Positions 9,258 to 29,079 of a stretch of DNA of 64,000 nt are shown piece after piece. Within the stretch, counting starts at the first letter, position 1, and each line of letters starts with the position of its first letter. The stretch lies in assembly GCA_027313705.1 (NCBI GenBank), contig DAHVDE010000105.1, forward strand, positions 30,544 to 94,543, written 5' to 3'. The DNA is from Actinomycetota bacterium (GTDB lineage: Bacteria; Actinomycetota; Actinomycetes; Streptosporangiales; Streptosporangiaceae). A program made the position numbers and the translations under genes. Under the pieces are notes generated by a model. The model searched no databases. It was not told the DNA's origin and saw nothing but the letters and a program-made list of their open reading frames with translations.

Positions 9258-10262
9258 TCATCGTGCTTGCCTTGGTCCGGTATTCGTGACTGGCTCGGCA
9301 AAGACGCGGCTGCCTCTGATGTCTTCCGCAGTGATCAGCATCAGGTCATCACGGCCGACGGTGCCCTGGACCGCGAGCAGCCGGCCGGCCTGGCGCAGCC
9401 TGGCCCGCTCAAGTGCATTGCGGACGCTCCGGGCATTGGCGAACCTTGGCTGCGTCATTCTCCGGTCCAGGTACTCGGAGAAAGCATCCCGCGCAGTTTC
9501 GGAAAAGCGATAGTTGTCATGCTCAAGAATAATCTGAGCGATCTGCGATAGTTCCGGCTTAGTGTAGTCATCGAACCGCAGGTGATGCGCGACTCGTGAG
9601 CTGAGGCCCGGGTTCGAGGCGAAGAAGGTCTCCATCCGGTCCGGATAGCCGGCGAAGATCACCGCCAGCGAGGCGCGGGCAGACTCCATCTCCTGAAGCA
9701 GGATTTCGATGGCTTCCTGCCCGTAGTCCCGCTCGTTCTCGGGCCGGTAGAGGTAATAGGCCTCGTCAATGAAGAGCACTCCGCCCGCCGCCTTGGCCAG
9801 GGCTTCCTTGGTCTTAGGCGCGGTGTGGCCGATGAACTGACCGACCAGGTCCTCGCGGGTGACCGCGTGCACCCGAGGCACCCGCAGGTAACCAAGCGCG
9901 TGCAAGATCTCAGCCATCCGCATGGCGACCGTGGTCTTGCCCGTGCCAGGGCTTCCAGTGAAGCTCATGTGCAGCGACGGCTTGCTGGCCGACAGGCCGA
10001 ACCTGGCTCGTGCCCGGTCCACCGTCAGCATCGCGGCGATCTCCTTGATCCGCAGCTTCACCGCGGCCAGTCCGACGAGTTCGGCGTCAAGCGCGGCGAG
10101 CACCGCCCTGACCCGTGCGGTCGCCTCGTCGGCGTGCAAGTCGACAAGGTCACCTGGTTCGAGCACCTGCGGCGCGGGCGGTTCTGCGGCCGCGGTGCCG
10201 TGAGCCGGCCTGGCGCCGTTGCTGATACCAGGCCGGTCCATCGAGAACTGAGCCGTCATCAT
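9258..10262 (-). CDS. cbbX: CbbX, AAA+ red-type RuBisCO activase
   Basis: Walker [14 protein letters not shown], Walker [33 protein letters not shown], then AGY..RM..F...NPGLSSR. Its ATG overlaps the cbbS stop (ATGA at 10259-10262). Confidence 0.9.
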
Positions 10263-10696
10263 GGCTCACCCGCATCGCTGCGATAGCGCTCCCCGGCTGG
10301 CGCCTGCGCCGCATAGGCCCGCACGCTGTATTGCTGGACCCGGCCACCGCGCTCGGCACGGTCAAGCTGGAACCCCGGCTCGTGCGGCGGCCGCTGCACG
10401 AGGAAGCTGAGCGCCACGGTCTGCCTGTGCAGGCTCGCGTCGTAGGCGAGCACCCGCACGTAGTGATCGGGGAAAGCGGCCCGGCAGGCGTTGATCTCGG
10501 CAAGCACGCCATCAGGCTGGTGCAAGTCGAACATGGGCAAACCCCAGATCTCCCAGTACACATTGCGCGGATGCGGATCGTCGGTGTACTCGACGGAGAC
10601 CGGCCAGCCATTGAGCAGTGCATAGCGCACCTGCGCCGCGATTTCATCGTCGGTCAGGTCAGGCAGGAAAGAGAAGGCTCCGTGTCGCAGGATCAT
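10259..10696 (-). CDS. cbbS: RuBisCO small subunit (red-type, with C-terminal extension)
   Basis: ATG 10696 gives [58 protein letters not shown]... It starts 13 nt after the cbbL stop. The ORF-track start at 10771 overlaps cbbL and is rejected. Confidence 0.9.
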
Positions 10697-10709
10697 TTCA
10701 GTGCTCCGG

Positions 10710-12308
<1,599 letters not shown>

Positions 12309-13199
12309 GTGACTCCTGGCAGGCTGGAGACCTTCCTCGCCGTCGTCGACGCCGGGTCGGCGCGAGCCGCCGCTCAGCGGCTGTCGGTGACCGAGTCCGC
12401 GGTGTCGGCGTCGCTGGCCGCGCTGCATCGCGAGGTGGGCGTGCTCCTGCTCGAACGGCACGGGCGCGGTCTTGCGCTCACTGAGGCGGGCCGGGTGTTC
12501 GCCGACTATGCCAGGCGGATTCTCGGCCTGATCGACGAAGGCGTCGCGGCCGCGCGGGCCGGCGTCAGCGCGGAGAGCGGCCTGATCAGGCTAGGGACGG
12601 TGGCGACCGCGGGCGAGTACCTGGTGCCCGGCCTGCTCGCCTCGTTCAGAAGGCACCACCCGCTGGTCGAGGTGACACTCGATGTCGGCGTCAGGGACAA
12701 GGTGCTCGCGCTGCTCGCCGATCACCGCCTCGACGTCGTGATCGCCGGAAGACCGCTGCCCGGTCGCGGGCTGGTGAGCCGCGCCACCCGCGCCAACCGC
12801 CTCATCGTGGTGGCCGCTGCCGGGCCGCGGCCCGACCTGGCGACCGCGACCTGGCTGTTGCGTGAGCCAGGTTCTGGCACCAGGGACACCACGCTCGCGC
12901 TGATCGAGTCGCTCCAGCTCGATCCGCCGGTCCTCGCTCTTGGCTCACACGGAGCGGTCGTAGCATCGGCGGCACTCGGTCTCGGCGTCACCCTGGTCTC
13001 AGCCGATGCGGTAGCTGCCCAGCTTGACCGCGGCGAGCTCGCACCGGTGCCTGCTTCTGGCACTCCGCTTGACCGGCCCTGGCACGCGACTACCGGCCCG
13101 GCGCCTACGGCCACCGCCAGGCTCTTCCTGCGCCATCTCACTGACCGCGACAGCTCAGGTCAGCTCGCCTTCGCGGGCGGCGAATTCGCCGGCCAATGA
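12309..13199 (+). CDS. cbbR: LysR-family regulator of the cbb operon
   Basis: VTPGRLETFLAVVDAGSARAAAQRLSVTESAVSASLAALHREVGVLLLERHGRGLALTEAG is a LysR HTH, and the gene is divergent from cbbL. I prefer the GTG 12309 start (TTG 12291 also possible) over the track start at 12243. Confidence 0.8.
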   Translation: MTPGRLETFLAVVDAGSARAAAQRLSVTESAVSASLAALHREVGVLLLERHGRGLALTEAGRVFADYARRILGLIDEGVAAARAGVSAESGLIRLGTVATAGEYLVPGLLASFRRHHPLVEVTLDVGVRDKVLALLADHRLDVVIAGRPLPGRGLVSRATRANRLIVVAAAGPRPDLATATWLLREPGSGTRDTTLALIESLQLDPPVLALGSHGAVVASAALGLGVTLVSADAVAAQLDRGELAPVPASGTPLDRPWHATTGPAPTATARLFLRHLTDRDSSGQLAFAGGEFAGQ

Positions 13200-13201
13200 A
13201 A

Positions 13202-13232
13202 GTGCGCCCGTCCGGATTAGGGACGGGCGCAC
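13202..13232 (+). terminator. Perfect 12-bp hairpin 3 nt after the cbbR stop
   Basis: gtgcgcccgtcc (13202-13213), loop ggattag, ggacgggcgcac (13221-13232). There is no U-tract, the I-shaped type common in high-GC genomes. Confidence 0.6.
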
Positions 13233-13280
13233 GGTCTCGCATCTAGACTGTCCTTATTGCCAATTGGCGGTGTGCTGGTG

Positions 13281-13315
13281 CACGGGAGTCGCTGGCTTCC
13301 GACCCCGCTCCCGTG
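13281..13315 (-). terminator. Hairpin immediately after the small-peptide ORF
   Basis: cacgggag (13281-13288) pairs with ctcccgtg (13308-13315). It abuts the TAA of the 22-codon ORF on the minus strand. Confidence 0.45.
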
Positions 13316-13384
13316 TTACCACACACGCCAGGCGACCAGGGAAAGCACGGTGGTCAGCAAGATCACGATGCCGTGGGGTTCCAT
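13316..13384 (-). CDS. 22-aa hydrophobic peptide (MEPHGIVILLTTVLSLVAWRVW)
   Basis: Below the ORF-track length cutoff. ATG at 13384 is preceded by GAAGGAGGTG with a 7-nt spacer. It encodes a single TM-like span, ends at TAA 13316-13318, and is bracketed by hairpins on both sides. Confidence 0.4.
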   Translation of the reverse strand: MEPHGIVILLTTVLSLVAWRVW

Positions 13385-13472
13385 TACGTACACCTCCTTC
13401 GCGATCCCTTGGTTGGCGCGGATGAGATTCCTTCGTGCCATTTCAGGGTCGCGTCTGGCCTAATCGATCTCC

Positions 13473-13516
13473 ATACGTAACGGCCCACGTAACAACCCAC
13501 AGGAAACCCACGTAAA
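13473..13516 (-). promoter_or_regulatory. Three phased direct repeats (TTACGTGGG/TTACGTATGG on the minus strand) upstream of the small-peptide ORF
   Basis: ACGTAA cores start at 13475, 13487 and 13510 (spacings of 12 and 23 nt, about one and two helical turns). They lie 90-130 nt upstream of the 13384 start and just downstream of the NB-ARC gene stop. Confidence 0.3.
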
Positions 13517-13526
13517 TGGCGGGATG

Positions 13527-15803
13527 CTACCTGCCGGCCGCTGCGGTCTCGATGGCCTGCGAAACGCGATCGGCGCCTGCCGAGCCGAGTCGCTGATAGA
13601 TCTCGAGTGCCTGGCGCAGGTAGGTAAGGCCGAGACTGGCGTCGCCGGTGTCCAGGTAGTACTCACCGACACCCTCCGCCGCGCGGGCTTTCTCCGGCAG
13701 CGACCCGATCGCGGTGGCAATCTCGAGCGAGCGCTCGAACCAGGCACGCGCCCCTATAAGGTCGCCGCGCACCCGAGCTAGGTGCCCGAGGTGATTAATG
13801 GTCCTGGCTTCTCCGGCCGTATTGCCGAGCTCGCGGAACAACTTCAGTGCCCGGTCATAGTGACGCGCCGCGGCCAGATGATCACCGGTTGCCTGGGCCA
13901 CCGCGCCCAGGCCGCGGTGCGCGTTCGCCTCGCCGAGTTTATTGTCCAGTTCCCTGTGCAGTTCAAGCGCGCCGAGGTAGTTGGCAAGCGCTGCCTGATA
14001 GTCGTAAGTGAGCCGGCACGCGTCGGCCAGGTGGCTGAGCGCATTTGCCTCGCCGACCTTGTTGCCGAGCCTGCGGTGCACCTCAAGTGCCCGCTCATGA
14101 CTGGTAGCGGCGGCGGCGGCATCACCGGTGTCGAGCTGCAAGGTGCCCAGGTCGGTCAGTGCGCCCGCCTCGGCGAGTTCATCGCCCGCTGCCCTGGCCG
14201 CCTCGAGTGCCGCCTTATGCAATACCCGGGCCGAAGTCCAGTGACCCTGGTTACGCAGGAAGCCATGCATGGCAGCGGCGATCGAGGCCGAGTAGCCAGG
14301 CAGGCCGGCGACGGCCGCGTAACCGACTGCCGCCTCCAGATTGTGCCGCTCGGCTTCCATCCAGGCCACGGCCTCCTCGCGGCTGGCCAGCTCCCGCGCT
14401 TGCGCGGGCGGAAGCAAGTCAGCGGTGAAGGCCTGCGCCGACGCGCGCCTGGCGAGGAAACGGTCGGCCGAGCGCGCCTGGTACAGGTAATAGCTAAGCA
14501 GCCTGGCCATGGCGACGCTTTGCTGGCCCGGCGGATCTTGCACTGCCAGCGCCCTGGCGCGTTCTCTGAGCAGGTCATGTAGCTGGTATCGGCCAGCGGC
14601 CGGTTCCATCAGCAGGTAATGATCGTAGAGGCTGTGCAGTTGCGCCCTGGCGGGCACGTAGCCGGTACCTGCCAGTGCTGACGCCGAGTAAGCGTCGACA
14701 TCGGTGCCGGGGTGAGCGCCGATGAGCCTGAACAGCCGTTGCTCGGCGGCGCTGACGTCGCGGTAGGACAGGTCGAAGGCGGCCGTGACCGAGGCGTCCT
14801 CAGCTCGCATCAGGTCAAGCCGGTCCCTGGCCGCCGCAAGATCTTCCGCCAGGCCAGCCGCCGTCCAGGTCGGGTGGTGATGCAGTTGCCTGGCCAGCAT
14901 GCCGATGGCGAGCGGCAGGTAGCCACACAGCCTGGTGATCTTCGCCACGGCGGTATCGCCGGCTTCCAGGCCAGGGCGGCCGGCCAGCCTGGTGAGCAGC
15001 GCTCCCGCCTCGGCGGGCGGCAAGGTGCCCAGGCTGATCAGCGCGGCATCGTCGAGCGCGGTCAGGTGCCTGCGGCTGGTGACTATTACCAGGCAGCCGC
15101 CGCTTCCCGGCAGCAGCGGCTGGACCTGATCGTGACCGGCGGCGTCGTCAAGCACGAGCAGCATCCGCTTGCCAGCGAGATAGCCACGCCACATCTGGGC
15201 GCTGGCTTCCAGGCTCGACGGGATCCGCGCCGCGACCACCCCAGCTACCTGAAGCAGGCTGGCCAGCGCCTCACCAGGCTCGACGGGATCCTGGCCGGGT
15301 GTATGCGCGTGCAGCCTGATGAAGATCTGGCCGTCAGGGAACGCGCCGGCCAGCCGGTGCGCCGCGTGGATGGCGAAGGTGGTCTTGCCCACGCCCGCCA
15401 TGCCGCCGATGACCAAGATCTCCGTTCCTGACCTGGCCAGCAGGTCGGTTACCTGCCCAAGCTCGGCGTCCCTGCCGGTGAACGCGGTGTTGTCACGCGG
15501 CAGCGCCCGCGGGCCTGGCCAGAAAGGGCCGGAGAAAACGCCAGGCGACATCACGTCCGCCCCGGCAGGCTTGCCGCGCGCGGCGGCCTCGAAGGCCGTG
15601 CGAGCTGACCCGCGCAGGCCAAGGCCATCGGCAAGCAGTTGCGCGGTATCTTTGCGCGCGGTCTGGTTGACCCCGCGTTCCAGGTCGCTGATGGACCTGA
15701 CGGCCACGCCAGAGGCGTCAGCCAGTTCCTCCTGCGTCAACCCGGCGGCCAGCCGAAGCTGCCGCAAGGTCCCAGCGAAAGCCACCAGCTGAGCATGGCT
15801 CAT
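13527..15803 (-). CDS. STAND NTPase: XRE-type HTH / NB-ARC / TPR repeats
   Basis: 758 aa. It has an N-terminal HTH (LRQLRLAAGLTQEELADASGVAVRSISDLERG), a P-loop (GGMAGVGKTTFAIHAAHRL), Walker B (MLLVLDDA), CLVIVTSR, and then a long series of TPR-like repeats. The start is 18 nt after the stop of the upstream giant ORF. Confidence 0.85.
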   Translation of the reverse strand: MSHAQLVAFAGTLRQLRLAAGLTQEELADASGVAVRSISDLERGVNQTARKDTAQLLADGLGLRGSARTAFEAAARGKPAGADVMSPGVFSGPFWPGPRALPRDNTAFTGRDAELGQVTDLLARSGTEILVIGGMAGVGKTTFAIHAAHRLAGAFPDGQIFIRLHAHTPGQDPVEPGEALASLLQVAGVVAARIPSSLEASAQMWRGYLAGKRMLLVLDDAAGHDQVQPLLPGSGGCLVIVTSRRHLTALDDAALISLGTLPPAEAGALLTRLAGRPGLEAGDTAVAKITRLCGYLPLAIGMLARQLHHHPTWTAAGLAEDLAAARDRLDLMRAEDASVTAAFDLSYRDVSAAEQRLFRLIGAHPGTDVDAYSASALAGTGYVPARAQLHSLYDHYLLMEPAAGRYQLHDLLRERARALAVQDPPGQQSVAMARLLSYYLYQARSADRFLARRASAQAFTADLLPPAQARELASREEAVAWMEAERHNLEAAVGYAAVAGLPGYSASIAAAMHGFLRNQGHWTSARVLHKAALEAARAAGDELAEAGALTDLGTLQLDTGDAAAAATSHERALEVHRRLGNKVGEANALSHLADACRLTYDYQAALANYLGALELHRELDNKLGEANAHRGLGAVAQATGDHLAAARHYDRALKLFRELGNTAGEARTINHLGHLARVRGDLIGARAWFERSLEIATAIGSLPEKARAAEGVGEYYLDTGDASLGLTYLRQALEIYQRLGSAGADRVSQAIETAAAGR

Positions 15804-15821
15804 CCGGGCGGCAATGCGCCA

Positions 15822-18800
15822 CTATCTCCCGGCTGAGCCTGGATTCTCACCAGTTAGGTAACCGCGAACCAAGGCACCTGCCCGCTGTTCGGCAAGGTAT
15901 TTAAGTTCTTCATATTCGCAAATAACCTCCAGGCTAAGGTCAGGCTCGGCGAGCCGGTCGGCCAGCCAGCCTGCGATGCGAGCCGCCGTACGTGCTGGCT
16001 CCGTTTCGTCAGCCGCCCACAGCATCGTGGCGTTCCTCGCCACTCGCGCGAGCCGCGCATCAGCCGAGCCCGATCCGAGCGCTTCGGCCGCTGGCCGCCA
16101 GTCGCCGAGGTAGGCCAGCCCGGTCAGCCGCCCGATCGGCACGCTCGGGTGCACCCCTGTCTGGTCGGTCTCGCCGAGCAGCCGGCGCGCCGCGCGGGCC
16201 AGCTCGTCGCCAGGGGAAAGCAATCTGGCCAGGTAGCCGATCGCCGCAAGTGCCTCGGCGGCAGGCGCGATCTCGGTCAGGCCGTAACCGGGCAACGCCA
16301 CTATTAGCCCGGTCCTTGCCTCAAGGCCGGCCAGCGCGGCGCCGAGTCCGCCATGGCGGGCGGCGATCACCCGCAGCGCCCCTGGCAGCGCCAGCGCGGC
16401 GGCGGCGGCGAGGAACGTGGGCAGCTCGCATTGCTGCCCTGCCGCATACTGGGCAAGCAGCCGGTCACCGGCCTCGGCGCCGGCCTCGTATCCGGGTCCG
16501 GCGTCGCCGGTCAGCAAGAAGGCGGCCGAGGCAAGCGCGTCGATCGCGCAGCGCACGTCGGTCTCGTCAGCTGACTTCAGCATGGCCGCCAGCTCGCCGC
16601 GTGGCTGGCCGAACCGGCTCATCACCACCGGCCACGGCCAGCGGAGGCGCTCCGCGACGTCGTGACCGGCCAGGAAACGGTGCGCCCGCCAGGCTTCCCG
16701 CACACCGCTGGCCAGATCACGGGAGGAAATCGCGCCGACCAGGGCACCAAGGCAGTCAAGGCCGGGCCGATCAGGCCGGCCCGGCCCGGCGAAAGCGGGC
16801 AGCAGGGCGCGGAAGTATCTGGTGACCTCGGCAAGGTCCACGCTGCGCTGCCTGGCCAGTGCCGCCGCGATCAGCACCAGGTCCGCGCGCTGCCCGGCCC
16901 AGGCCGCGGCTGCGGCGAACGCACCGGGAGCGAGATCTGGCCTGCCGCCAAGCAGCCGGTGCGCGGCGGCGGCGGCGGCCAGCGGGTCAGGTCCGGCGAT
17001 CACGGTGAGCAGGCGCTCGGCAGGCAGGTCGGAGCCGAACAAGATGGCACGCCAGGCAGCTTCTCCGCCTTCGTCGCGGCCGCGCTCCGCGGCGACCGCG
17101 GCGTCGATCAGCTCACGAACCGGACCGTCGCCGATCTCGAACGCGAACCGGCGCTTGAGCAGCTCGCTAAGCCGATCTGGACCGCTCAGGCCGCGAAGCA
17201 GCTCGTAACGTTCCTCTTGCAACTGCCGCGCCTGCGCGGCCGAGATCGCGGCGGGCAACTCGCCTTCGACCTCGGTCAGCCGCACAGCGGCGGCCCGCCG
17301 GTAGGCGCCGGCGAGCCTGCCTGGCAGCCGCTCGCCCAGGCTCCTGAGCGCCAGCCAGGCTTCATGGCGCACCGGCCATGGCGTCTCGCCGCCAACCTGC
17401 TCGGCAATCAGCGCGACGATTCCGTGCAGCTTCAGGTCGCCGATGATCCGCGTGGCCGCCGCCCGCACGCTGGCAGGAACCCCGCTGCCGGTAATCAGGC
17501 TGGCCGCCTGCCTGATCAAAGAGCCGGCCAGCAAGCTGCGCGGCTGTCCGGGGCGGGCCGCACGGCAGGCATCGGCCAGTGCGGTAAGGCAGAACTCGCG
17601 CCAGACAGGATCGGCGCCGCTGTCGGCGATCACCGCGAGCAGGCCAGCGTAAGCGGGCCGCCGCCCGCCGCTGTAGCCAAGCTCCGCGCAGGTGCCGAGG
17701 TCGGCTAGCGCCAGCGCGGCTCGCTCCCGTGCGAGCCTGCTCGCGCGGGAGTCCTTCAGCGTGCGTTCTTGTGCCTGCACGAACCAGCCGGCCAGACTGG
17801 CCGGCGGCCCGTCCGCCGACAGGAGCAACGCCGCCGCGTAGCGCGGGTCGGCGTCCGCCACCGTCCGCACCAGGTCGCCAAGCAGGTCAGGGGTGGTCGT
17901 ACTGAACGAGGCGAACATCTTGAATGCATCGCGCCAGGCGAACCTGAGCAGCAGCAGAACCAGCCCGCGCGGATCGGCGCCTGCCGTCGCCCGCAGCACC
18001 CTGGCGGCGAAGTAGTCCTGGTAAACCCGCACCGTGAAGTGACAGGCCCCGCCATCCCGCACCACGATGCCAAGGCAGGCAAGCCCTTCGTCGGCTCGCT
18101 CCTCGCCGTGGTCACCGTTAAGCTGCCGCACGGCCAGCCGCTCCGCGTGGTCGATCCACGAACCGGGCGGCACAGCGGCCACGTACCGGTCGAGCAGGTC
18201 TCCGGCCGTCCGCGCCTGGCCGGCGTCCTGAACCTGGGCAAGCATGGAAAGCAGCAGCGGGTTACGAGCAAGTTCGGCCAGCGCCTGGTCGGGCGAGCGG
18301 CCGAGCACGCGATCGGCGATGGCGGCCGCACCAGGCGACGGGTGCCTGGCGAGGTACTGCCCGATGCACGCCGGATCGGGCTCGTGCAGCGCGATCGCGC
18401 GCCAGCCGGCTAGCTCGGCGGGCGCATGTGTACCCCGACAGCAGATAGTCAGCAAAGCGCGCGGGAACCGCTGCCTGACCTGCGTAAGCCAGCCGGTCAC
18501 GCTCGGCAGGTCGGCTGCGGCGAGCCGATCGAAATCGTCGACTAGCAGGTGGATCACGCCGACGGCGAGCAGGGGGCGCACCGGCCCCGCACCGCGCAAT
18601 GTCTGGTCCAAGAACTCCCAGACCGCGTCGCCTCCGTGCCGCAGTGACCTTTGCAGCTCAGCCGCCCGCACCCGGACAGGAAGGTGCGGGACCTCCGTTT
18701 CTGCTGGCCAGCGGGTCAGGTAACCGGACGGCCGCAGCCAGCGGCGCTCAAGTTCTTCGAGCAAGCTGGTCTTGCCCGACCCGGTGCCGCCGAGCACGAT

Positions 18801-20750
18801 GACCCTCCTGGCCCTAAGCGCAAGCTCGACGGCACTTTCGGCCAGCGGCGAAGGACGGCCGGCTGCGAGCGGGAACTCGGCCGCGTCGTCGTCCGACGCG
18901 GCTCCCCTGATCGGGCCGAGATCGACTGCGGGCAGGTCGATGTAAAGGTCGCGGACGCCACCAGGCCATGGCCGGTCAGCCGCCATCGCCTTGACCGCTC
19001 CGGCCGTGATCCTGCGCAGTTCAGCACCAAGCACCGGGGCCGAGGGCGCCGTGGTGAGGTTGATGCCGCCGACCAGGCTGGCCAAGAGCGCCAGGCCGGC
19101 CGGCGTGGCGGGAATCAGCGGGGCGACCGCGGCGGCGGGCGCGTCCAGGTCAGCCTCTTGCCAAAGGCGCCAAGGGCCGTCCTCGTCGGCAAGCTGCTCG
19201 GTGGCGACGCTCGCGGCGGCGACCTGAGCCCGCCAGGTGCCTTGGGTCTGCAGTTCGTCTTTCCACTTGAAGACGTGGTGCGCGGCGAACAGCACCTGGG
19301 TGTGGTACTCGCGCCACCACGGGCGCACGCCTGGCTTCTCTTCTGGGTAGATGGTCCTGGCATGGCCCCTAATGACGGAGAGCACGCTCAGCGGGCCGGC
19401 CAGCTTGCGGTACTGGTCGCCGCTCCGGTCGCCCAGGCCGGCCAGGAGCGCATCGTCGACCTGGCTGCGGTCGAAAGGCCCGAGCAGTGCCGCTACCCTG
19501 TCGCCGAGCGCGAGCAGCCGCTCCAGCCTGACCAGCTCGGCGGCGGAGAGCAGCTCGGAAAATGGGTGGCGCAGCAGATTGAGTTCCAGCCAGGCGAGAT
19601 CAGACTGGATCGGCCGGTCCTTTCTCGGACTGGCATAGTCGATCAGGAACGGCCGGTCGCCGGCCACGAGCACGTTGCTCGGGTTGAAGTCGCCGTGGAC
19701 GCTTGACGTGACCAGGCCGGCCTGCTGGTCCATCAGGGCGCGGCGCAGCACGCCGAACGGATGGGCGATCGGCACGCCGTCAAGTTCCGTGCCGCCTTCG
19801 GCCACCGCCAGCTCGGGCAGTGCCTGACTTACCCGCTGCCAGGTGAGCGCCGACCGCCAGGACGCGACCCTCCCGCGCAGGGTGAAGCTCTGGCCGCCAG
19901 GCCGATCCGGTGGCAGCATCGCCTCTTCGACTTTGACGGTGACATTGTCCCGCCCGGCGAACCGCGGGCCGAACTCGCGCGCGGGCCAGAAGCCGCGCAG
20001 CATCACCTCGGTGCCAGGGGCGAGCGATCTGGTGCCGCCAGGCTCACCGGCGCCTTCGAGCGCGAGCGCCATCCGGAGCACCTGGTCAGGCAGCAACTGC
20101 CTGACGTCATCGGACCCTGGCCGCGCCGAGGTCGTGCCGCGGTCCCTGGTCGCCCGCGCCGCGGTGAGCTCAAGGTCAGCGCCGAGCAGCGGGTTGAGCG
20201 CCTCCCAGCTACCGAGGTCGGCCACCCGGTTGTCACGGTAGAAGACCAGATTGGCGAGCTTAAGCAGGGCGCCGATTAGCTCGCGCGCCGTTCGCACCTG
20301 CGTCTCGCCGCCAGCGACCGCGGCGCGGATCACCCGCTCTAGTTCGACGGGCTCGGCTCCGCCGAACTCCTGCACGTCGGAGTAGACGACGGCCTCGTCT
20401 TCACCGAGTCGCAGATTCTGGTCAAGTACCCCCGCGCTGACCGCCTCGATCGGCGGGCAGAGCGCACTCGGCGCGTTCTTGATGATTCGCTGGTATGCCG
20501 CCCATTCGGTAGCGACGTTTACCCCGACCTTCGCGATCTGCGTTCTGCGGTAGTTGTCGCGTACTACTTCGATCCTGAGCACGAGCGCGCCGGTGCGGCC
20601 GCCGGTGAGCTTGCTCTTGACCTCGATCCGGTCAGGTGCCTGCCACCGGCCAGGTCCGTCGCCGACCGCGACGCGGTTTAGCGCGGCTTTGATTCTCGCT
20701 TGCTCGTCCTCGTCAAGGTACTCGCTAAAGAGAACATTGAGCGCGGCCAT
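15822..20750 (-). CDS. Giant STAND protein: protein-kinase/APH-like fold / NACHT NTPase / HEAT-ARM-like repeats
   Basis: 1642 aa.
- Kinase-like motifs: KLTGGRTGALV, IAKVG, HGDFNPSNVLV (aa 352-362) and FLIDYA.
- NACHT motifs: VIVLGGTGSGKT (aa ~651-661), IHLLVDDFDRL, LTICCRG, NPLLLSMLA and YQDYFAA.
- The C-terminal ~650 aa are Ala/Leu/Arg-rich helical repeats. Confidence 0.85.
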   Translation of the reverse strand: MAALNVLFSEYLDEDEQARIKAALNRVAVGDGPGRWQAPDRIEVKSKLTGGRTGALVLRIEVVRDNYRRTQIAKVGVNVATEWAAYQRIIKNAPSALCPPIEAVSAGVLDQNLRLGEDEAVVYSDVQEFGGAEPVELERVIRAAVAGGETQVRTARELIGALLKLANLVFYRDNRVADLGSWEALNPLLGADLELTAARATRDRGTTSARPGSDDVRQLLPDQVLRMALALEGAGEPGGTRSLAPGTEVMLRGFWPAREFGPRFAGRDNVTVKVEEAMLPPDRPGGQSFTLRGRVASWRSALTWQRVSQALPELAVAEGGTELDGVPIAHPFGVLRRALMDQQAGLVTSSVHGDFNPSNVLVAGDRPFLIDYASPRKDRPIQSDLAWLELNLLRHPFSELLSAAELVRLERLLALGDRVAALLGPFDRSQVDDALLAGLGDRSGDQYRKLAGPLSVLSVIRGHARTIYPEEKPGVRPWWREYHTQVLFAAHHVFKWKDELQTQGTWRAQVAAASVATEQLADEDGPWRLWQEADLDAPAAAVAPLIPATPAGLALLASLVGGINLTTAPSAPVLGAELRRITAGAVKAMAADRPWPGGVRDLYIDLPAVDLGPIRGAASDDDAAEFPLAAGRPSPLAESAVELALRARRVIVLGGTGSGKTSLLEELERRWLRPSGYLTRWPAETEVPHLPVRVRAAELQRSLRHGGDAVWEFLDQTLRGAGPVRPLLAVGVIHLLVDDFDRLAAADLPSVTGWLTQVRQRFPRALLTICCRGTHAPAELAGWRAIALHEPDPACIGQYLARHPSPGAAAIADRVLGRSPDQALAELARNPLLLSMLAQVQDAGQARTAGDLLDRYVAAVPPGSWIDHAERLAVRQLNGDHGEERADEGLACLGIVVRDGGACHFTVRVYQDYFAARVLRATAGADPRGLVLLLLRFAWRDAFKMFASFSTTTPDLLGDLVRTVADADPRYAAALLLSADGPPASLAGWFVQAQERTLKDSRASRLARERAALALADLGTCAELGYSGGRRPAYAGLLAVIADSGADPVWREFCLTALADACRAARPGQPRSLLAGSLIRQAASLITGSGVPASVRAAATRIIGDLKLHGIVALIAEQVGGETPWPVRHEAWLALRSLGERLPGRLAGAYRRAAAVRLTEVEGELPAAISAAQARQLQEERYELLRGLSGPDRLSELLKRRFAFEIGDGPVRELIDAAVAAERGRDEGGEAAWRAILFGSDLPAERLLTVIAGPDPLAAAAAAHRLLGGRPDLAPGAFAAAAAWAGQRADLVLIAAALARQRSVDLAEVTRYFRALLPAFAGPGRPDRPGLDCLGALVGAISSRDLASGVREAWRAHRFLAGHDVAERLRWPWPVVMSRFGQPRGELAAMLKSADETDVRCAIDALASAAFLLTGDAGPGYEAGAEAGDRLLAQYAAGQQCELPTFLAAAAALALPGALRVIAARHGGLGAALAGLEARTGLIVALPGYGLTEIAPAAEALAAIGYLARLLSPGDELARAARRLLGETDQTGVHPSVPIGRLTGLAYLGDWRPAAEALGSGSADARLARVARNATMLWAADETEPARTAARIAGWLADRLAEPDLSLEVICEYEELKYLAEQRAGALVRGYLTGENPGSAGR

Positions 20751-20786
20751 CTAACGCCCACGGCCGCTGCGGCGCAAACTGGCCAC
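20751..20786 (-). promoter_or_regulatory. 11-codon leader uORF (VASLRRSGRGR) whose TAG abuts the ATG of the giant ORF
   Basis: On the minus strand: GAAGGAGG, 6 nt, GTG GCC AGT TTG CGC CGC AGC GGC CGT GGG CGT TAG ATG. The giant ORF has no SD of its own. The uORF stop (20751-20753) is directly adjacent to ATG 20750-20748. Confidence 0.3.
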
Positions 20787-20876
20787 TTCATGCCTCCTTC
20801 GGGGAACGGCAGCAAATCCACGGTCTACAGTAGTATCGCGGCAACTGGCACGATATAGCGAGGGTCGGCAGCGAGA

Positions 20877-21266
20877 ATGGTCCCTGAGCGCGCGATTGAC
20901 GGCCTGACCCTGGCGCGGTGGCGCTCACTGTGCGAGCGGTTTATCGCGATCAAACTCGGCGCCTTCCGCAACGATCTCGCGGCCGACTGGCACACGCTGG
21001 CGAGGATCGAGCCAGGCACGCCTGGCCTGCTCGACGAGTGGGAGCTACTCGAGGAGCGGATAGCCGAGCTTGACGACTTCGGCGACACCATAGTGGTCAG
21101 GCACTGGCCGGACGGCGGGGACGAGGAAGAAGAAGAAGATTGGGCCGGGGAGGAAACCGAGTACCTCTGCCCGGCGAACCGGTGTGACCGGAGAGTCAGC
21201 GCCGGCACGGGCACCGTGCCGCGCTGCGACCTCTACGACCGCCCGATGAGGCTGCCAGAAAGCTGA
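20877..21266 (+). CDS. Hypothetical acidic protein with a Cys-containing C-terminal tail
   Basis: 129-aa ORF divergent from the giant STAND gene, with GC-rich third positions. It has an acidic run (DGGDEEEEEDWAGEETEY) followed by LCPANRCDRRVSAGTGTVPRCD. I recognise no family. Confidence 0.55.
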   Translation: MVPERAIDGLTLARWRSLCERFIAIKLGAFRNDLAADWHTLARIEPGTPGLLDEWELLEERIAELDDFGDTIVVRHWPDGGDEEEEEDWAGEETEYLCPANRCDRRVSAGTGTVPRCDLYDRPMRLPES

Positions 21267-21360
21267 CACCTCAGCCATAACGTGCCGGCCGAGATAGCGC
21301 TTGGCCGTCATTTCGACAATGCGTCATACTGGCGCCATGGTGGCCTGGGATGCCAAATAG

Positions 21361-22362
21361 ATGACATCGAACGAAGATGGAGTGCCAGCGGCGCTCATTG
21401 CCGTGGAGATCAAGGCGCTGCGCAAGGGCCGCGGCATCCGCTCGAGTGACCTCGATCACAGACTTGGCGATTATCTGCGCGAACTGACCGGCGGAGCGGC
21501 AGGAGGCGCGGCCGGCCCTCGCCAGGTGCTGGCGGAAGAACTTGCCGCCCTGGCGGTGAAACTCCCCGACGACTTGCGCCTCGCGGTGCTTGCCAGCATC
21601 GGACAGGCTGCCGAGACCAAGCAGATGACCAGGTTCGGCGACCGGGTGAGCTGGCTAGCGCAGCAAGCGGGGCGCACCGACCGCACCATTCTGCGGCGGA
21701 TCGGATCGGCCGAGCAACTACTGGCCGAGGAAGTGGCCGGGGAGCTGCGGCGGCGGCGTAGCTCCCCGGTAAGCGGGTCGACGGGCTGGTACCTGGACGA
21801 GTTCCGCACGGTACTTCGCCTGGACACGCCAACCCCTGAGTTTCACGAACGACGCCGAATCGTCGCGACTCGCCCTGGCCTGGATCAGGTCAGGGCCTGG
21901 TGGGACGTGCCGAGGGACGCGGGAGAGCCACGGGCGGCATTGACTGCCGAGGTGCTTTATGGCGGGCGCCTGGTAAAGCGGCTCGACAGCAAGGGCAATG
22001 CCTTCGAGTTCGTCATCGAACTGCCGACCGCGCTCGAGCAGGGCGACGAGCATGAGTACGCGCTGATCCTGCGGATGCCCAGAGGCGACCTGAAGCGGCA
22101 GCACTACATATTTACGCCGGAATACCAGTGCAACGCGTTCGACCTGACCGTGCGTTTCGACCTCGACAGCCCGCCGGCCTGGGTACGCGAGGTTCGCGGC
22201 GAGACGGTTCGCACCTTCGACCCGCCGAAACCAGGCAAGGAGAACCTCGAGCCTGATGGTGCCGGGGAGGTCCATGTCCGCTTCGATCACCCTGTCATGT
22301 ACCTGGGTTACGGCCTCCAGTGGGACCTGCCAGATAGGGCAGACGAGGCGCCGTATCGCTAG
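21361..22362 (+). CDS. Hypothetical protein, possible N-terminal HTH plus an unknown ~200-aa C-terminal domain
   Basis: 333-aa ORF with coding-like composition. The segment GRTDRTILRRIGSAEQLLAEEV looks HTH-like. The C-terminal part (WYLDEFRTVLRLD...EYALILRMPRGDLKRQHYIFTPEYQCNAFDLTVRFDL...) is unassigned. Confidence 0.6.
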   Translation: MTSNEDGVPAALIAVEIKALRKGRGIRSSDLDHRLGDYLRELTGGAAGGAAGPRQVLAEELAALAVKLPDDLRLAVLASIGQAAETKQMTRFGDRVSWLAQQAGRTDRTILRRIGSAEQLLAEEVAGELRRRRSSPVSGSTGWYLDEFRTVLRLDTPTPEFHERRRIVATRPGLDQVRAWWDVPRDAGEPRAALTAEVLYGGRLVKRLDSKGNAFEFVIELPTALEQGDEHEYALILRMPRGDLKRQHYIFTPEYQCNAFDLTVRFDLDSPPAWVREVRGETVRTFDPPKPGKENLEPDGAGEVHVRFDHPVMYLGYGLQWDLPDRADEAPYR

Positions 22363-24196: not shown

Positions 24197-24221
24197 CAGT
24201 GATTTGACATTGATAGTCGCT

Positions 24222-24248
24222 GGCCGTCATCCATGGTTAACGACGGCC
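24222..24248 (+). terminator. Hairpin after the dehydratase gene
   Basis: GGCCGTC (24222-24228) pairs with GACGGCC (24242-24248) around a 13-nt loop. It lies 26 nt after the stop at 24196 and inside the ORF-track N-terminal extension of the next gene, which supports a later start for that gene. Confidence 0.35.
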
Positions 24249-24263
24249 GGCGATCTTTGGTCG

Positions 24264-25469
24264 ATGGACGCCTCTGAAGCTGAGTTGTCTTCACCCATCT
24301 GCCGTCAGATGCTCGAGGGTGCCGGAGGTGCCGGGTTCCTGGCCGCCACCGCTTCGATCCGCGCCAAGTCGTCCTCGCTTGAGCCTGCGTCCGCACACGA
24401 GGACGGCACCCCTGGACAGGTTCACCTGACCTGGGGAGATGACCCGGCGACCTCGATGGTCATCTCCTGGGTCTCGCCAGGTCAGGCGGCGGGCGCGCGG
24501 GTACTGCTTACCAAGGGCGATGGCTGGACCAGGACGATCATGGCGGAGCAGCGCAGTCATGCCGACGAGATCAGGGGCCAGAACGGCTGGGCGTATCACG
24601 CCGAGCTCAGGTGGCTCGCCCCGGACACCACGTATTCCTACCTGGTGACCGCCGACAACGACGGCTCGGCCGCCCCCGTCTCCTGCCGGTTCCGCACCGC
24701 GCCTGCTGGCCGGGCAGCCTTCCGCTTCACCAGTTCAGGCGACCTGGGTACCGGTGACCTGGCCTGGCCGGCCGGGCGCCGGCAGAGCGCGCATGCGGTC
24801 TGCGTCATCAAGTCGTTCCAGCCCTTGTTCCATCTGCTCAACGGCGAATTGTGCTACCCGGGAGATGACCTAGCCGAACGGCCAGGTGGCTGGCGTGACT
24901 TCCGGAACGAGGGGACCGGCGTTCGCGGGCGCTTGCATTCGTTCAGGGTCGGCTCGGCGCTCTTCGTCTCGCTCGACTCCTGCGACGTCAGCTACCAGAC
25001 CGCCTGGCTCGACCGCACGCTCGCGGCCGCGCGGGCCGATAGCGGCGTCGACTGGATCATCGTGCTGGCCGATCGGGCCTCCTGCTCGCCTCCGGTCCAG
25101 CGTGACGACTCTAGCCAGGGCATCAGGCAGGAGTGGCGGCCGCTGTTCGACCGCTACGAGGTCGACCTCTTGCTGGGCGGCCACGACGTGGCCAGCCCGC
25201 AGTCGTCCCTCGTCCGCAGCCTTGACTGGCAGGCAGTGCAGACCCTGTACCCGGACCCGGACCCCGACCCGGACCCGGGCACGGACGGGTACGGCATCGC
25301 CGTGTTCGACCTTGATCCAGGCAAGACACCGGGCGGGAATACCAGCATCACCGTCAGGTACTTTCGCGCGAGCCGAGCGGATGCGACCGATGCGACCGCG
25401 CGCCACGCCCAGCTCGACGTCTTCACCTTGACCAGGCCCCGCTCAGATGGCGCGGTGCGCCTGCGCTGA
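24264..25469 (+). CDS. Degenerate purple-acid-phosphatase-like metallophosphoesterase (likely inactive or a pseudogene)
   Basis: The PAP N-terminal Ig-like part is intact (VHLTWGDDPATSMVISW...YSYLVTADNDG...RFRTAP) and motif I (SSGDLG) is present. Other motifs are damaged.
- Motif II reads NGELCY (D to E).
- No GNHE motif is present.
- WIIVLADRAS replaces the ..H.. motif.
- GGHDVAS replaces GHxHxYE.
- A PDPDPDPDPG tract sits where ~100 aa seem to be missing.
The start is uncertain. Confidence 0.55.
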   Translation: MDASEAELSSPICRQMLEGAGGAGFLAATASIRAKSSSLEPASAHEDGTPGQVHLTWGDDPATSMVISWVSPGQAAGARVLLTKGDGWTRTIMAEQRSHADEIRGQNGWAYHAELRWLAPDTTYSYLVTADNDGSAAPVSCRFRTAPAGRAAFRFTSSGDLGTGDLAWPAGRRQSAHAVCVIKSFQPLFHLLNGELCYPGDDLAERPGGWRDFRNEGTGVRGRLHSFRVGSALFVSLDSCDVSYQTAWLDRTLAAARADSGVDWIIVLADRASCSPPVQRDDSSQGIRQEWRPLFDRYEVDLLLGGHDVASPQSSLVRSLDWQAVQTLYPDPDPDPDPGTDGYGIAVFDLDPGKTPGGNTSITVRYFRASRADATDATARHAQLDVFTLTRPRSDGAVRLR

Positions 25470-25488: not shown

Positions 25489-27150
25489 CTACCTTCCGGC
25501 ATGCACGAATCCGGCCCAGGTAAGTGGCAGGTCGGTCGACCCGTCGTCGCGCAGCCGGCGAACAGCTGCATGCAGAGCCGCGGCCAGCGAAAGACGTCGT
25601 CCGCCGCACGGGACCAATCGCTTGCGTACGGCCGCCGAGCTATCGCCGGCTTCCCACAAGGTGCCGGTCACCTGGGCGAATCCGGCGAGTTGCATTGCCG
25701 AAGTGAGGTGGAGCGGCTCGGGGCTCTCCGGCAACATCGCCAGCAGCCTGCCTGCCTCGCCGTCAGGCTCGATCACGTTGGCGGCCGAGCCGGTACTTGC
25801 CCGTGCCTGGCCGAGCGCGTGCACGGTAGGCGTGTAAGAAGACACCACCCGGTCGAGCAGCGTACGGCCGCCCCTTTCCCTGTGGTGGCCCGCGGCGTGC
25901 AGCGGCAGGCGGCAGAGTGCCCCGGTAGGCATCCACCAGATCCTGGTCAGGCTCGCGGGATCTGCTGTCACGTCGGCGCAGCCGAGCTGATCGAGCACGG
26001 GCCAGGCGATGGTGTCCCACAGCCATTCCAGAATCCCCGACAGGTCGCTGTTCGGCCCGGAGGGCTCGCTCAGCCATCCGCCAGCCTTGGCCCGCGAAAG
26101 GGACCTGTCGAGCAGCGCGGCCTGGCCCGCCAGGCTGGCCTGGTTCAGTCCTGGCAGCGGAACGCAGGTTACCGTCCCTCGGGCGAGCAAGAGCGCATCG
26201 CCTCGGTAACGGCTCACGCTGATGGCCGCCACCGGACCGGAGCCGACCCATGAACTGAAGTCAGCTAGGGCGGGAACCGCGCGGTACCCGGGCCGCCCAA
26301 GGCCCAGCGAGTGCCAGAGCAAGCTGCCACGACCGGCCTCGAGCAGGCCGAACGCCAGTTCAGCTCGCTCGGACTCGGTCTTACCTGGTCGGTCATCGAG
26401 CAACGCGAGCGACGCCGCTGCGGTCGCGAGCCCGGCGAACGAGCGCAGGCCCTGCTTGCCCTGCGCCGAATTGAGGCGGTCAGGCGCCAGCCCGGCCAGG
26501 CCGGCGACCGCGCGTTCCGCCAACTCAGCGGCGGCCGACACTTGCCCGGCCGTGACGAGAGCGCCCGTCACTTCGCGGCTCGTGCTCACCGCTTCGGTCA
26601 GGTCCGCCGTATCGCCGTAACTGTCAAAGCGCTCCATCAGCGTCGTGCACAAGCCGTAACCAACGCGCGCAGCCTGCGGACTGCCACCTGGCGCCGCGCC
26701 AGCAGCGCGCCGGAAGGCGACGACGGCGGCGTCAAGATCACGCTTGCCGAGCGTCGCGCCTTCCCTGTCAAACCGCAATTTGAGCGCCCCGGCGAGATTG
26801 GCCAAGATCGTGAACTGGTCGGGGTCGCCGTCGGGGACGAGGTCGGCACCCCGCCTGCCGACTTCCACCGCTTCATCGATATCGGCCATGGCGCCGTGTC
26901 GCCTGAACCGGTGCGCAAGCGCCATTCCGAGCATGCCAAGCGTCTTCGACCTGCGTTCATTGTCGTCCTGCGGTGTCGCGGCGAGCGCGCGCCGACACCT
27001 GGCGACCGCGTTTGACAGCAGGGCATCATCGCCCGAGGCGATCGCCTGCCTGAGCGTCGAAGCGGCTAAGGCGAACCCCTCGGCGGGACCGGGCAGCCGA
27101 GGATCAGATATTGGCCCGCTGCCAGCAGCCGCGCCCATCCAAACCCCCAT
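25489..27150 (-). CDS. TPR-like / CHAT-domain protein apparently lacking the catalytic His-Cys segment
   Basis: 553 aa. The N-terminal helical-repeat region is present, and the CHAT entry motif (IWWMPTGALCRLPLHAAGHH...SYTPTVHAL) and exit motif (LHLTSAMQLAGFAQVTGTLWEAGD...LTWAGFVHAGR) are recognisable. Only ~40 aa separate them. No H..HG or SAC.T motif is present. An alternative start is ATG 27138. Confidence 0.7.
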   Translation of the reverse strand: MGVWMGAAAGSGPISDPRLPGPAEGFALAASTLRQAIASGDDALLSNAVARCRRALAATPQDDNERRSKTLGMLGMALAHRFRRHGAMADIDEAVEVGRRGADLVPDGDPDQFTILANLAGALKLRFDREGATLGKRDLDAAVVAFRRAAGAAPGGSPQAARVGYGLCTTLMERFDSYGDTADLTEAVSTSREVTGALVTAGQVSAAAELAERAVAGLAGLAPDRLNSAQGKQGLRSFAGLATAAASLALLDDRPGKTESERAELAFGLLEAGRGSLLWHSLGLGRPGYRAVPALADFSSWVGSGPVAAISVSRYRGDALLLARGTVTCVPLPGLNQASLAGQAALLDRSLSRAKAGGWLSEPSGPNSDLSGILEWLWDTIAWPVLDQLGCADVTADPASLTRIWWMPTGALCRLPLHAAGHHRERGGRTLLDRVVSSYTPTVHALGQARASTGSAANVIEPDGEAGRLLAMLPESPEPLHLTSAMQLAGFAQVTGTLWEAGDSSAAVRKRLVPCGGRRLSLAAALHAAVRRLRDDGSTDLPLTWAGFVHAGR

Positions 27151-27299
27151 TTTAAAAATATGCCGAGCGACGCTTCCCTCTTAATGAAATCACCAATACG
27201 CCCAGTAGTCGCCCGACCAAGCGGAACTGTCAACTTTCTGTCAGTTTTTCATAAATATGTCCCTGCAAATATATGTTGACATATTAAAAGGCTATCATC

Positions 27300-27616
27300 C
27301 TGGCCGGCAGTGATGGTAAACCTAGGGGCAGATACCTAGTCGGTCGCGAACTCCAGGGGGACAGGGAAATGCCGAATAGCAAGGTCAGGGGGGCGAGGTG
27401 CGGAGCTGGTGCCAGCCCACGGCACTCGCAGCTGGGCCTTGCTCAGGGCATTCATGGCACCCAGGAGAACGAGACCGGCGAGGGGGGGGATAAGCGAATA
27501 TTCGAGGGCAGTTCGCAGTCGGAAATCTCGAATGCTCGCGGCAGGCCAGGCTCTTACCCTGGCATTGGTCTGCTGCGGACGGGAACGGCAAAAGCCGTTC
27601 CCGTCCGCGCCATTTT
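27300..27616 (+). ncRNA. Candidate structured RNA (family not recognised)
   Basis: Non-coding-looking ~300 nt with nested helices:
- 27322-27326 with 27335-27339
- GGTGCC 27408-27413 with GGCACC 27456-27461, enclosing GCCCA 27415-27419 with TGGGC 27433-27437
- ATTCGAG 27500-27506 with CTCGAAT 27527-27533
- GCCAGG 27545-27550 with CCTGGC 27558-27563
It ends in a 15-bp hairpin plus U-tract oriented for the plus strand. The 5' end is unknown. Confidence 0.3.
27575..27616 (+). terminator. Canonical intrinsic terminator (15-bp perfect stem, AAAA loop, then GCCATTTT)
   Basis: gcggacgggaacggc (27575-27589), loop aaaa, gccgttcccgtccgc (27594-27608), then gccattttgg. The T-run is only on the plus strand. 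The hairpin also lies 16 nt downstream of the minus-strand VWA gene stop and could serve it as a U-less terminator. Confidence 0.65.
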
Positions 27617-27624
27617 GGCAGTGA

Positions 27625-29076: not shown

Positions 29077-29079
29077 AAG

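Follow-up and report, generated by a model that had tools for sequence, protein, structure and literature searches.

Two adjacent genes for large STAND proteins lie between housekeeping operons in a 64,000-nucleotide stretch of DNA from a Streptosporangiaceae bacterium (GenBank assembly GCA_027313705.1, contig DAHVDE010000105.1, positions 30,544 to 94,543; hereafter the window), and they raise the question of whether such a locus serves immunity, gene regulation or metabolism. An initial annotation, made from the sequence alone, had likened the locus to NACHT/Avs-type immunity or to AfsR-like switches and called its housekeeping neighbours unrelated. A place among NACHT-type immunity or conflict systems is supported by the loci of its relatives, in which CHAT, NUDIX, TIR-like and VMAP genes flank the homologue of the larger protein. 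We lean towards regarding the locus as an unnamed variant of the nucleoside triphosphate (NTP)-dependent STAND conflict systems, which act against phage or in regulated cell death and for which multicellular bacteria are enriched. Its core would be an NLR-like giant protein, composed of an effector head, a NACHT switch and a C-terminal sensor or scaffold, together with a divergently encoded, cysteine-rich partner of 129 residues.

The head of the giant matches the Pfam family PF19974, TCAD9, over model positions 2-429 of 429 (E 1.3e-81; 275.4 bits against a cut-off of 40). The catalytic set of the protein-kinase-like superfamily is present in full, comprising the Gly-rich loop, the β3 lysine, the αC glutamate, the catalytic aspartate, the asparagine and the metal-binding aspartate. 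The corresponding motifs occupy residues 47-57 (Gly-rich loop), K74, 352-354 (HGD), N359 and D371, and the head motifs listed in the initial annotation were all found at the residues it had given. In a 17-sequence family alignment reaching down to 27% identity, K74, E82, H352, G353, D354, N356, N359 and D371 are invariant, and G51 and G54 of the Gly-rich loop are almost so. Furthermore, the HGDLNxxNVL..IDY segment of the head family profile pairs with the catalytic and metal-binding loops of the Rio2 kinase (E 6e-5), and the same segment also aligns to a MAPKK-like protein, corramycin phosphotransferase, TTK and hygromycin kinase.

Residues 1-560 were modelled with AlphaFold from an 11-sequence alignment (predicted local distance difference test (pLDDT) 78; predicted template modelling score (pTM) 0.82), and the model consists of a β-rich N-lobe, a helical C-lobe and an additional helical extension. 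All of its top 50 Foldseek matches in the PDB belong to the kinase superfamily, as kinases or pseudokinases (probability up to 0.94), and include 25-hydroxysteroid kinase, APH(3')-Ia, Rv3168, KSR1, SYK and EGFR. The scores are weak, with no E-value below 0.05 and TM-scores of 0.14-0.48, and are lowered by an insert in the fold and the extra helices. The initial annotation had placed an insert of about 150 residues at approximately 190-330, and the model shows a β-rich, low-confidence insert close by. On the sequence evidence, a kinase-like fold with a predicted intact catalytic apparatus is taken as established for the head, in agreement with the kinase/APH-like reading of the initial annotation. 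As the head has an HGDxNxxN loop and no activation segment, it is grouped with the atypical and small-molecule kinases rather than with the Hanks kinases. TCAD9 is listed within the protein-kinase-like families of the KINtaro set (10.64898/2026.09.18.752743) and has been linked, as an accessory domain, to the vWA-MoxR-VMAP ternary conflict systems (PMC10910872). The name traces to the work of the Aravind laboratory on these systems, and a definition of TCAD9 was not found in the supplement text of PMC7159879.

The middle of the giant is, by profile evidence at the family level, a divergent NACHT-type STAND NTPase. The motifs quoted for this module in the initial annotation are all present, namely a Walker A GGTGSGKT (654-661, including K660), a Walker B LLVDDFDRL (735-743), NPLLLSMLA (830-838) and YQDYFAA (910-916). 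The window protein itself falls below the Pfam NACHT threshold (20.1-23.6 bits against a cut-off of 26.7). Among its relatives, 13 of 18 have a Pfam NACHT match at E ≤ 0.01, the best at 4.9e-7. In addition, positions 41-334 of the NACHT family profile align to residues 169-471 of NLRC4, a span of about 300 residues (E 4e-4). The profile also matches NOD2, NLRP9, NLRP1 and NAIP5, the last three over later segments, and the similarity to NLRs runs past the P-loop into the helical and winged-helix part. The Walker B motif of relatives reads VDGVDEV, LDGLDEV or VDDLDEV, and more distant members fit the NACHT signature D[GAS]hDE (Kibby et al., 10.1101/2022.07.19.500537).

The last 640 or so residues of the giant form a conserved region rich in Ala, Leu, Gly and Arg. 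While the domain order given in the initial annotation proved correct, its description of this region as about 650 residues of HEAT/ARM-like repeats was not upheld. No Pfam repeat family was found in the tail, HEAT_2 being matched in only 1 of 15 relatives (E 0.034); no PDB match was obtained; and segment profile-profile comparison gave no internal repeat, with no match probability above 5%. In view of this lack of a repeat family, a solved relative or an internal periodicity, the repeats are regarded as unverified.

Of all the neighbours of the giant, it is the small divergent gene upstream, and not the second STAND gene, that is retained most consistently. Such genes encode 124-150 residues, lie about 100 nt upstream of the giant, and are present in all core actinobacterial loci for which upstream sequence is available. 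These number some 20 separate loci, and their giants range down to about 28% identity; no small partner was detected in the branch most distant from the core (L020, L033, L035, L036 and L039-L050). The 47 homologues are all labelled 'hypothetical' and have no Pfam domain. The invariant positions are W38, W55, R75, C98, C103, R105, P115 and C117, with C19 almost invariant. Since no Ser, Thr or Tyr is invariant, the protein is not an obvious conserved phospho-acceptor. Its model (pLDDT 80) comprises three helices, an acidic low-confidence linker and a C-terminal β-hairpin that may be a zinc ribbon. Foldseek comparison with the PDB and with viral models gave nothing below E 0.1, and the weak PDB matches, to zinc ribbons of RNA polymerase and to S27e, are no more than suggestive. 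Across 15 loci (105 pairs), the pairwise identities of the small partner correlate with those of the giant (r 0.93) at equal mean divergence, which fits co-inheritance and similar rates and is no proof of contact.

The giant and its small partner also evolve at a much higher rate than the genes around them, a behaviour common among immune genes. Between the window and the syntenic locus L002, identities are 96% for RbcL, 88% for RbcS and 86% for both CbbX and LysR, 77% for the second STAND protein and 76% for a 333-residue protein encoded beyond the small partner; they fall to 62% for the small partner and to 52% for the whole giant (head 50%, NACHT 51%, tail 56%).

A word-indexed search of 5.8 billion proteins returned 11 full-length relatives of the giant, and an exhaustive profile search of 1.84 billion representatives at 50% identity returned 134 at E ≤ 1e-30, most of them 1400-2000 residues long and colinear with the giant over head and NACHT. 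As judged from these searches, the family is real but small and very diverse, with about 100 clusters at 50% identity, mostly from soil actinobacteria. Its genomes include Amycolatopsis, Actinomadura, Dactylosporangium, Sphaerisporangium, Streptomyces, a Streptosporangiaceae metagenome-assembled genome (MAG) and one Longimicrobium MAG, and the proteins are labelled 'hypothetical' by PGAP. On plasmids and phages, only three weak Streptomyces-plasmid matches were found, and no PHROG match.

The neighbourhoods of these giants were surveyed in about 45 loci related to the window (numbered L001 onwards). The giant is immediately followed by CHAT proteases in L004/5, L007, L009 and L027 and has them adjacent in L008, L013, L016 and L024; the usual companions in most of the family include large tetratricopeptide repeat (TPR)/CHAT proteases whose genes often overlap the giant's stop codon. 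A SMODS-associated NUDIX gene occurs with a conserved partner of about 365 residues in some 15 loci, a CAP12/PCTIR TIR-like gene lies by the giant once, in L024, and a VMAP protein follows the giant, adjoining it, in the distant relatives L020, L033 and L046. The NUDIX and TIR-like companions match PADLOC defence models.

Several further features of these neighbourhoods were observed. Examples of the NUDIX/partner pair, which is absent from the window, are found at 22895-24681 of L004 and 11427-13045 of L024. The partner of about 365 residues shares its N-terminal region with the 386-residue L024 protein that bears the CAP12/PCTIR TIR-like domain at its C-terminal end, as if one N-terminal module were shared and combined with differing C-terminal effectors. 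The relative P0010 (L010, 3238-7200; 1320 residues) carries a Pfam TIR_2 domain besides TCAD9, is about 320 residues shorter than the window giant, and has no detected small-partner gene upstream. In L023, the interval 9817-17683 contains in addition a DUF4407 gene, genes for a radical-SAM and a double-AAA protein, and a faint DO-GTPase2 match, and may represent a further conflict-type gene set.

The second STAND gene presents a different picture. Its product was described in the initial annotation as an XRE/NB-ARC/TPR protein, and all three parts were matched by Pfam (HTH_3, E 1.2e-11, residues 13-63; NB-ARC, 6.5e-11, residues 113-312; TPR_12, 6e-27); its NB-ARC motifs are a Walker A GMAGVGKT (134-141) and a Walker B LLVLDDA (215-221). 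The nearest NCBIfam models are HaaT (545 bits; cut-off 1125) and AfsR (293 bits; cut-off 1430), the latter covering the NB-ARC/TPR part only. Neither identity was accepted: HaaT is a TPR protein of cyclophane ribosomally synthesized and post-translationally modified peptides (RiPPs), and neither RiPP nor radical-SAM genes adjoin the locus in the window; AfsR is a global regulator of the SARP family, and the head of the window protein is an XRE-type HTH_3 domain. The initial annotation had considered that close homologues might be characterised pathway regulators, and no characterised close homologue, pathway regulator or other, was found for either STAND protein, HaaT and AfsR being the best NCBIfam matches and far below their cut-offs. 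A tblastn search against plasmids located 391 places in 209 records, up to 26 in a single record and all at no more than 40% identity, annotated as 'tetratricopeptide repeat protein', HaaT or BTAD regulator. By these matches, the second protein belongs to a very large family of actinobacterial paralogues.

An orthologue of this gene (62-77% identity) follows the giant in the window and in L002, L003/L012, L011, L023 and L028/L029, that is, in five to six lineages with at least three flank contexts and with giants diverged to 40% identity. The pairing drawn in the initial annotation is thus conserved in these loci and absent from most of the family; the paired giants form one part of the giant tree, and the pairing is confined to this one subclade. 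A 2-kb insertion separates the two genes in L012, and some 400 nt do so in L023 and L028/L029; between the P0003 giant and its second gene lie four small unannotated ORFs (open reading frames) of 197, 126, 75 and 101 residues. TPR/CHAT genes come next after the second gene in L011 and L028/L029, and in L013 an unrelated STAND/TPR protein takes its position.

The coordinates of the window features are collected in Table 1. Both STAND ORFs were confirmed as initially annotated, co-oriented on the minus strand and 18 nt apart, and so was their position between housekeeping genes, with LysR and RbcL/RbcS/CbbX genes on one side and a dehydratase of the IlvD/Edd family on the other. No operator-like inverted repeats were found in the intergenic regions of the locus and no promoter-like site in the region between the giant and the small partner; promoter and terminator scans remained at chance level. 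The window from 8113 to 30197 is 99.65% identical to L001 (GCA_027314965.1, contig DAHUZW010000124.1, a MAG), with 41 mismatches and 16 gap openings across 22 kb; the resulting changes include R742W and E1426D in the giant, one in the 333-residue protein and two in the CHAT protein.

Table 1. Features of the STAND locus, in window coordinates.
Feature	Coordinates	Strand	Evidence
Giant STAND protein, 1642 aa: TCAD9 head, divergent NACHT NTPase, conserved C-terminal region	15822..20750	-	ORF, Pfam, relatives
TCAD9 domain, aa 41-495, APH/Rio-like kinase fold	19266..20630	-	Pfam, alignment, profile, model
β-rich insert in kinase fold, ~aa 172-300, low model confidence, variable length	19851..20237	-	Model pLDDT; gappy alignment columns
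NACHT-type STAND NTPase module, ~aa 640-1000	17751..18833	-	Walker motifs, family profile vs NLRs
Conserved C-terminal region, aa 1001-1642, presumed sensor or scaffold	15825..17750	-	Alignment, composition
Small cysteine-rich partner, 129 aa, divergent from giant	20877..21266	+	Homologues, conservation, model
Intergenic region, 126 bp, giant/small partner, presumed to hold both promoters	20751..20876	.	Sequence
XRE-HTH/NB-ARC (AP-ATPase)/TPR STAND protein, 758 aa, 18 nt downstream of giant	13527..15803	-	ORF, Pfam, NCBIfam
XRE-type helix-turn-helix (HTH), aa 8-69	15597..15782	-	Pfam HTH_3 and HTH_31; PHROG transcriptional regulators
NB-ARC NTPase, aa 108-312	14868..15482	-	Pfam, 42.4 bits vs 23.5 cut-off
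TPR region, ~aa 518-740	13584..14252	-	Pfam TPR_12, TPR_10, TPR_8; PADLOC TPR model
333-aa protein, fold without match, downstream of small partner	21361..22362	+	Conserved in window subclade only
TPR + CHAT (caspase-like) protein, 553 aa, 4.7 kb from giant	25489..27150	-	Pfam CHAT 3.5e-13

The surroundings of the core are less uniform. The initial annotation had proposed testing whether the STAND pair and the interval 20877-22362 co-occur; the small partner was found beside the giant in about 20 loci, and the 333-residue gene is restricted to the subclade. The 333-residue protein is conserved only in the window and, at 67-76% identity, in L002, L003/L030 and L011; it has no match in Pfam, NCBIfam, PADLOC, PHROGs or the PDB, and was found to be unrelated to the NUDIX-associated partner and to the L024 TIR-like protein. 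The CHAT protein of the window is 35-41% identical, over the CHAT domain, to CHAT proteins beside giants in other loci; two metabolic genes part it from the giant, and no CHAT counterpart lies near L002. It is a possible member of the system. Co-oriented with the CHAT gene are a vWA gene (27625-29076, minus strand; MadC/CoxE-like, below cut-off) and a gene for a MoxR-like AAA ATPase (29080-29940, minus strand; MadB-like at 313 bits, below cut-off), and the group (25489-29940), at 4.7-9 kb from the giant, recalls a MoxR/vWA/caspase conflict module. The vWA and MoxR-like genes (27625-29940) were considered as the ternary partners of TCAD9 and set aside, being sub-threshold, 7-9 kb away and absent from the other loci of the subclade.

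Among the remaining genes, the cbb operon occupies the minus strand (RbcL, 10710-12200; RbcS, 10259-10771; CbbX, 9258-10262), with a LysR-type, CbbR-like gene (12243-13199) divergent from it. This block (9258-13199) abuts the 3' end of the STAND pair, and the same layout is seen in L002. A 421-residue ORF between the dehydratase and CHAT genes (24204-25469, plus strand) matches only the N-terminal domain of purple acid phosphatases and has no NCBIfam match. The G+C content of the giant is 70-74%, and that of the flanking genes 64-68%.

From the domains, residues, gene associations and fast divergence observed in this family, we infer a possible trigger, order of events, substrate and biological role. 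A trigger, probably derived from phage, would be sensed by the C-terminal region or by way of the small partner, and NTP would bind at the NACHT module (K660) and bring about oligomerisation. The TCAD9 head (K74, D354, N359, D371) would be activated or clustered as a result and might then phosphorylate a small molecule or a protein, leading to growth arrest or to an onward signal. On this reading, a DNA-binding STAND protein has been added downstream of the giant in the subclade of the window, standing between the giant and the CHAT proteases in sister loci, and the lineage of the window itself has lost the adjacent CHAT and NUDIX modules. The second protein is most likely an NTP-gated transcriptional regulator of the locus; alternatively, it could be an adaptor of the AP-ATPase type, such as commonly accompanies caspase-like proteases.

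Several observations weigh against a conflict system of this kind. The literature yielded no experiment on any member of the giant family, and PADLOC-DB 2.0 contains no model that matches the giant (P-loop-level matches only, E 0.01), the small partner, the 333-residue protein or the CHAT gene; the second gene meets generic TPR and HTH models only. The locus lies between housekeeping operons with no integrase, toxin or other defence gene adjacent, the NUDIX and TIR-like genes of its relatives are absent, and its sole CHAT gene lies at a distance of 4.7 kb. Relaxed constraint could also account for how fast the giant and the small partner diverge. Moreover, the three modules of the giant diverge about equally and the tail is the most conserved of them (56% against 50-51%), so the tail does not resemble a hypervariable antigen sensor. 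The window Walker B, VDDFDR, departs from the NACHT signature. The close relative P0003 (L003, 10001-14905) has lost both Walker A (GEMDLAEA) and Walker B (LLVGRFDE) and kept all of its kinase residues, and the Walker A lysine is absent in L016 and L020; NTP switching may therefore not be essential.

The alternatives turn largely on the second gene. In one of them, the locus is a switch of the AfsK/AfsR kind, in which the kinase head of the giant phosphorylates the second protein and thereby directs transcription in development, stress or secondary metabolism rather than in immunity. Such a switch would account for the DNA-binding head of the second protein, its resemblance to the NB-ARC/TPR part of AfsR (293 bits), the orthologous conservation of the pair in five to six lineages with differing flanks, the loss in the window lineage of the death-type effectors of its relatives, and the stronger conservation of the second protein than of the giant (77% against 52%), as would be expected of a regulator. 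It is difficult to reconcile with a head of the APH/Rio type, whose HGDxNxxN loop and missing activation segment set it apart from the Hanks-type AfsK, or with a DNA-binding domain that is XRE and not SARP, the AfsR and HaaT scores both lying far below their cut-offs. No biosynthetic cluster adjoins the locus, and most giants lack the second gene and have CHAT, NUDIX, TIR-like or VMAP genes instead. We consider this switch unlikely. That the two STAND genes are functionally independent, a paralogue from an expanded family having become fixed beside the giant in one lineage, appears somewhat more doubtful still. The second gene does belong to a hugely expanded family, with 391 places on plasmids, evolves at a different rate from the giant and is missing from most of the giant family, and the pairing survives both the four-ORF insertion in L012 and the gaps in L023 and L028/L029. 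Yet it is always the same orthologue, at 62-77% identity as compared with at most 40% for the plasmid paralogues, that is found immediately downstream and co-oriented; the pairing is kept over giants at 40% identity and in at least three flank contexts, a mere 18 nt separates the genes in the window, and a different STAND/TPR protein fills the same position in L013.

The remaining possibilities concern the output of the head. A two-tier cascade, in which the cysteine-rich partner gates or guards the giant and the triggered kinase head phosphorylates the XRE/NB-ARC/TPR protein, so that a transcriptional output replaces or precedes death, is a speculative extension to which we attach a low probability. 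Most improbable is that the head is an antibiotic or metabolite phosphotransferase serving resistance or metabolism, with the STAND part as a mere regulatory appendage. The nearest matches of the head do include APH(3')-Ia, hygromycin kinase, corramycin phosphotransferase and a steroid kinase, but these matches are weak (E 4e-4 to 0.4) and limited to the catalytic core, and the neighbourhoods of the relatives are of the conflict type rather than of the biosynthetic or resistance type. We know of no resistance enzyme that takes the form of a 1600-residue NACHT fusion.

A variant of the STAND conflict systems, as favoured here, can be compared with several known systems. Phage protection is conferred by bacterial NACHT proteins that bear effectors at the N-terminus, and it depends on their Walker A lysine; a Pkinase entry appears in the key of NACHT-protein domains (Kibby et al., 10.1101/2022.07.19.500537). 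As in these proteins and the Avs STANDs, the giant has an N-terminal enzymatic effector, a central STAND NTPase and a long C-terminal region; there is a similar enrichment in actinobacteria, and relatives of the giant carry a Walker B of the form DGhDE. Unlike them, its head is TCAD9 (APH/Rio-like) rather than a nuclease, protease, TIR domain or Hanks kinase, and a seemingly obligate, small cysteine-rich partner is encoded divergently. The window NACHT is below the Pfam cut-off, has the Walker B DDFDR and matches no PADLOC model; the C-terminal region is not the fastest-evolving part.

The resemblance to the vWA-MoxR-VMAP systems (Kaur, Burroughs, Iyer and Aravind, 2020/2021) begins with the head, which belongs to the Pfam family named after them, and extends to the VMAP gene beside the distant giants of L020, L033 and L046, to the caspase-like, TIR-like and NUDIX companions and to the actinobacterial bias. 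An active APH-like 'small-molecule kinase' is listed among conflict-system effectors (PMC7159879, PMC8195603) and is presumably TCAD9. However, a Pfam scan of window genes between 9258 and 27150 revealed no VMAP domain, and the only MoxR-like and vWA genes of the window are the distant, sub-threshold MadB/MadC-like ones. Neither the TCAD9-NACHT fusion with its small partner nor the XRE/NB-ARC/TPR companion is described in those conflict-system papers whose main texts were searched.

With the AfsK/AfsR pair of Streptomyces, the locus shares a kinase-type protein beside an NB-ARC/TPR STAND protein that resembles a transcription factor. AfsK is a Hanks-type kinase, whereas the kinase of the giant is atypical and fused to NACHT, and the second protein has an XRE rather than a SARP head. 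Finally, the order of second-gene orthologue and TPR/CHAT gene in L011 and L028/L029 recalls the apoptosome-like operons of AP-ATPase(NB-ARC)/TPR and CHAT proteins (a theme cited in PMC8195603); in the window the CHAT gene is not adjacent, the nearest being 4.7 kb away and on the other side. Because the NB-ARC of the second protein carries an HTH head, DNA binding is suggested rather than protease recruitment.

What was already known, then, are the domains, the layout of effector, STAND module and long C-terminal region, and the combination of TCAD9 with NACHT as a precomputed Pfam architecture. The papers searched contained no description of the giant family, its small partner or the XRE/NB-ARC/TPR subclade. 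The initial annotation had been unable to assign the architecture and pairing to any named system; no PADLOC model fits the locus, and the head itself already had a name in Pfam. Being absent from PADLOC, the family could be added as a candidate system.

The work on bacterial NLR-like defence consulted here emphasises nuclease, protease and NAD-consuming effectors. If an intact atypical kinase does act as the effector of the giant, phosphorylation of a metabolite or a protein would be a different kind of output for such systems. The giant and its small cysteine-rich partner would likewise offer a simple two-protein model for the gating of a STAND switch by a co-factor. Were the two-tier cascade correct, the logic of AfsK to AfsR would operate within an immune module, and the same relay would also license the CHAT proteases of sister loci. 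The subclade of the window, which appears to have swapped death-type effectors (CHAT, NUDIX and TIR-like) for a DNA-binding STAND protein, would provide a natural case for asking how immune outputs change.

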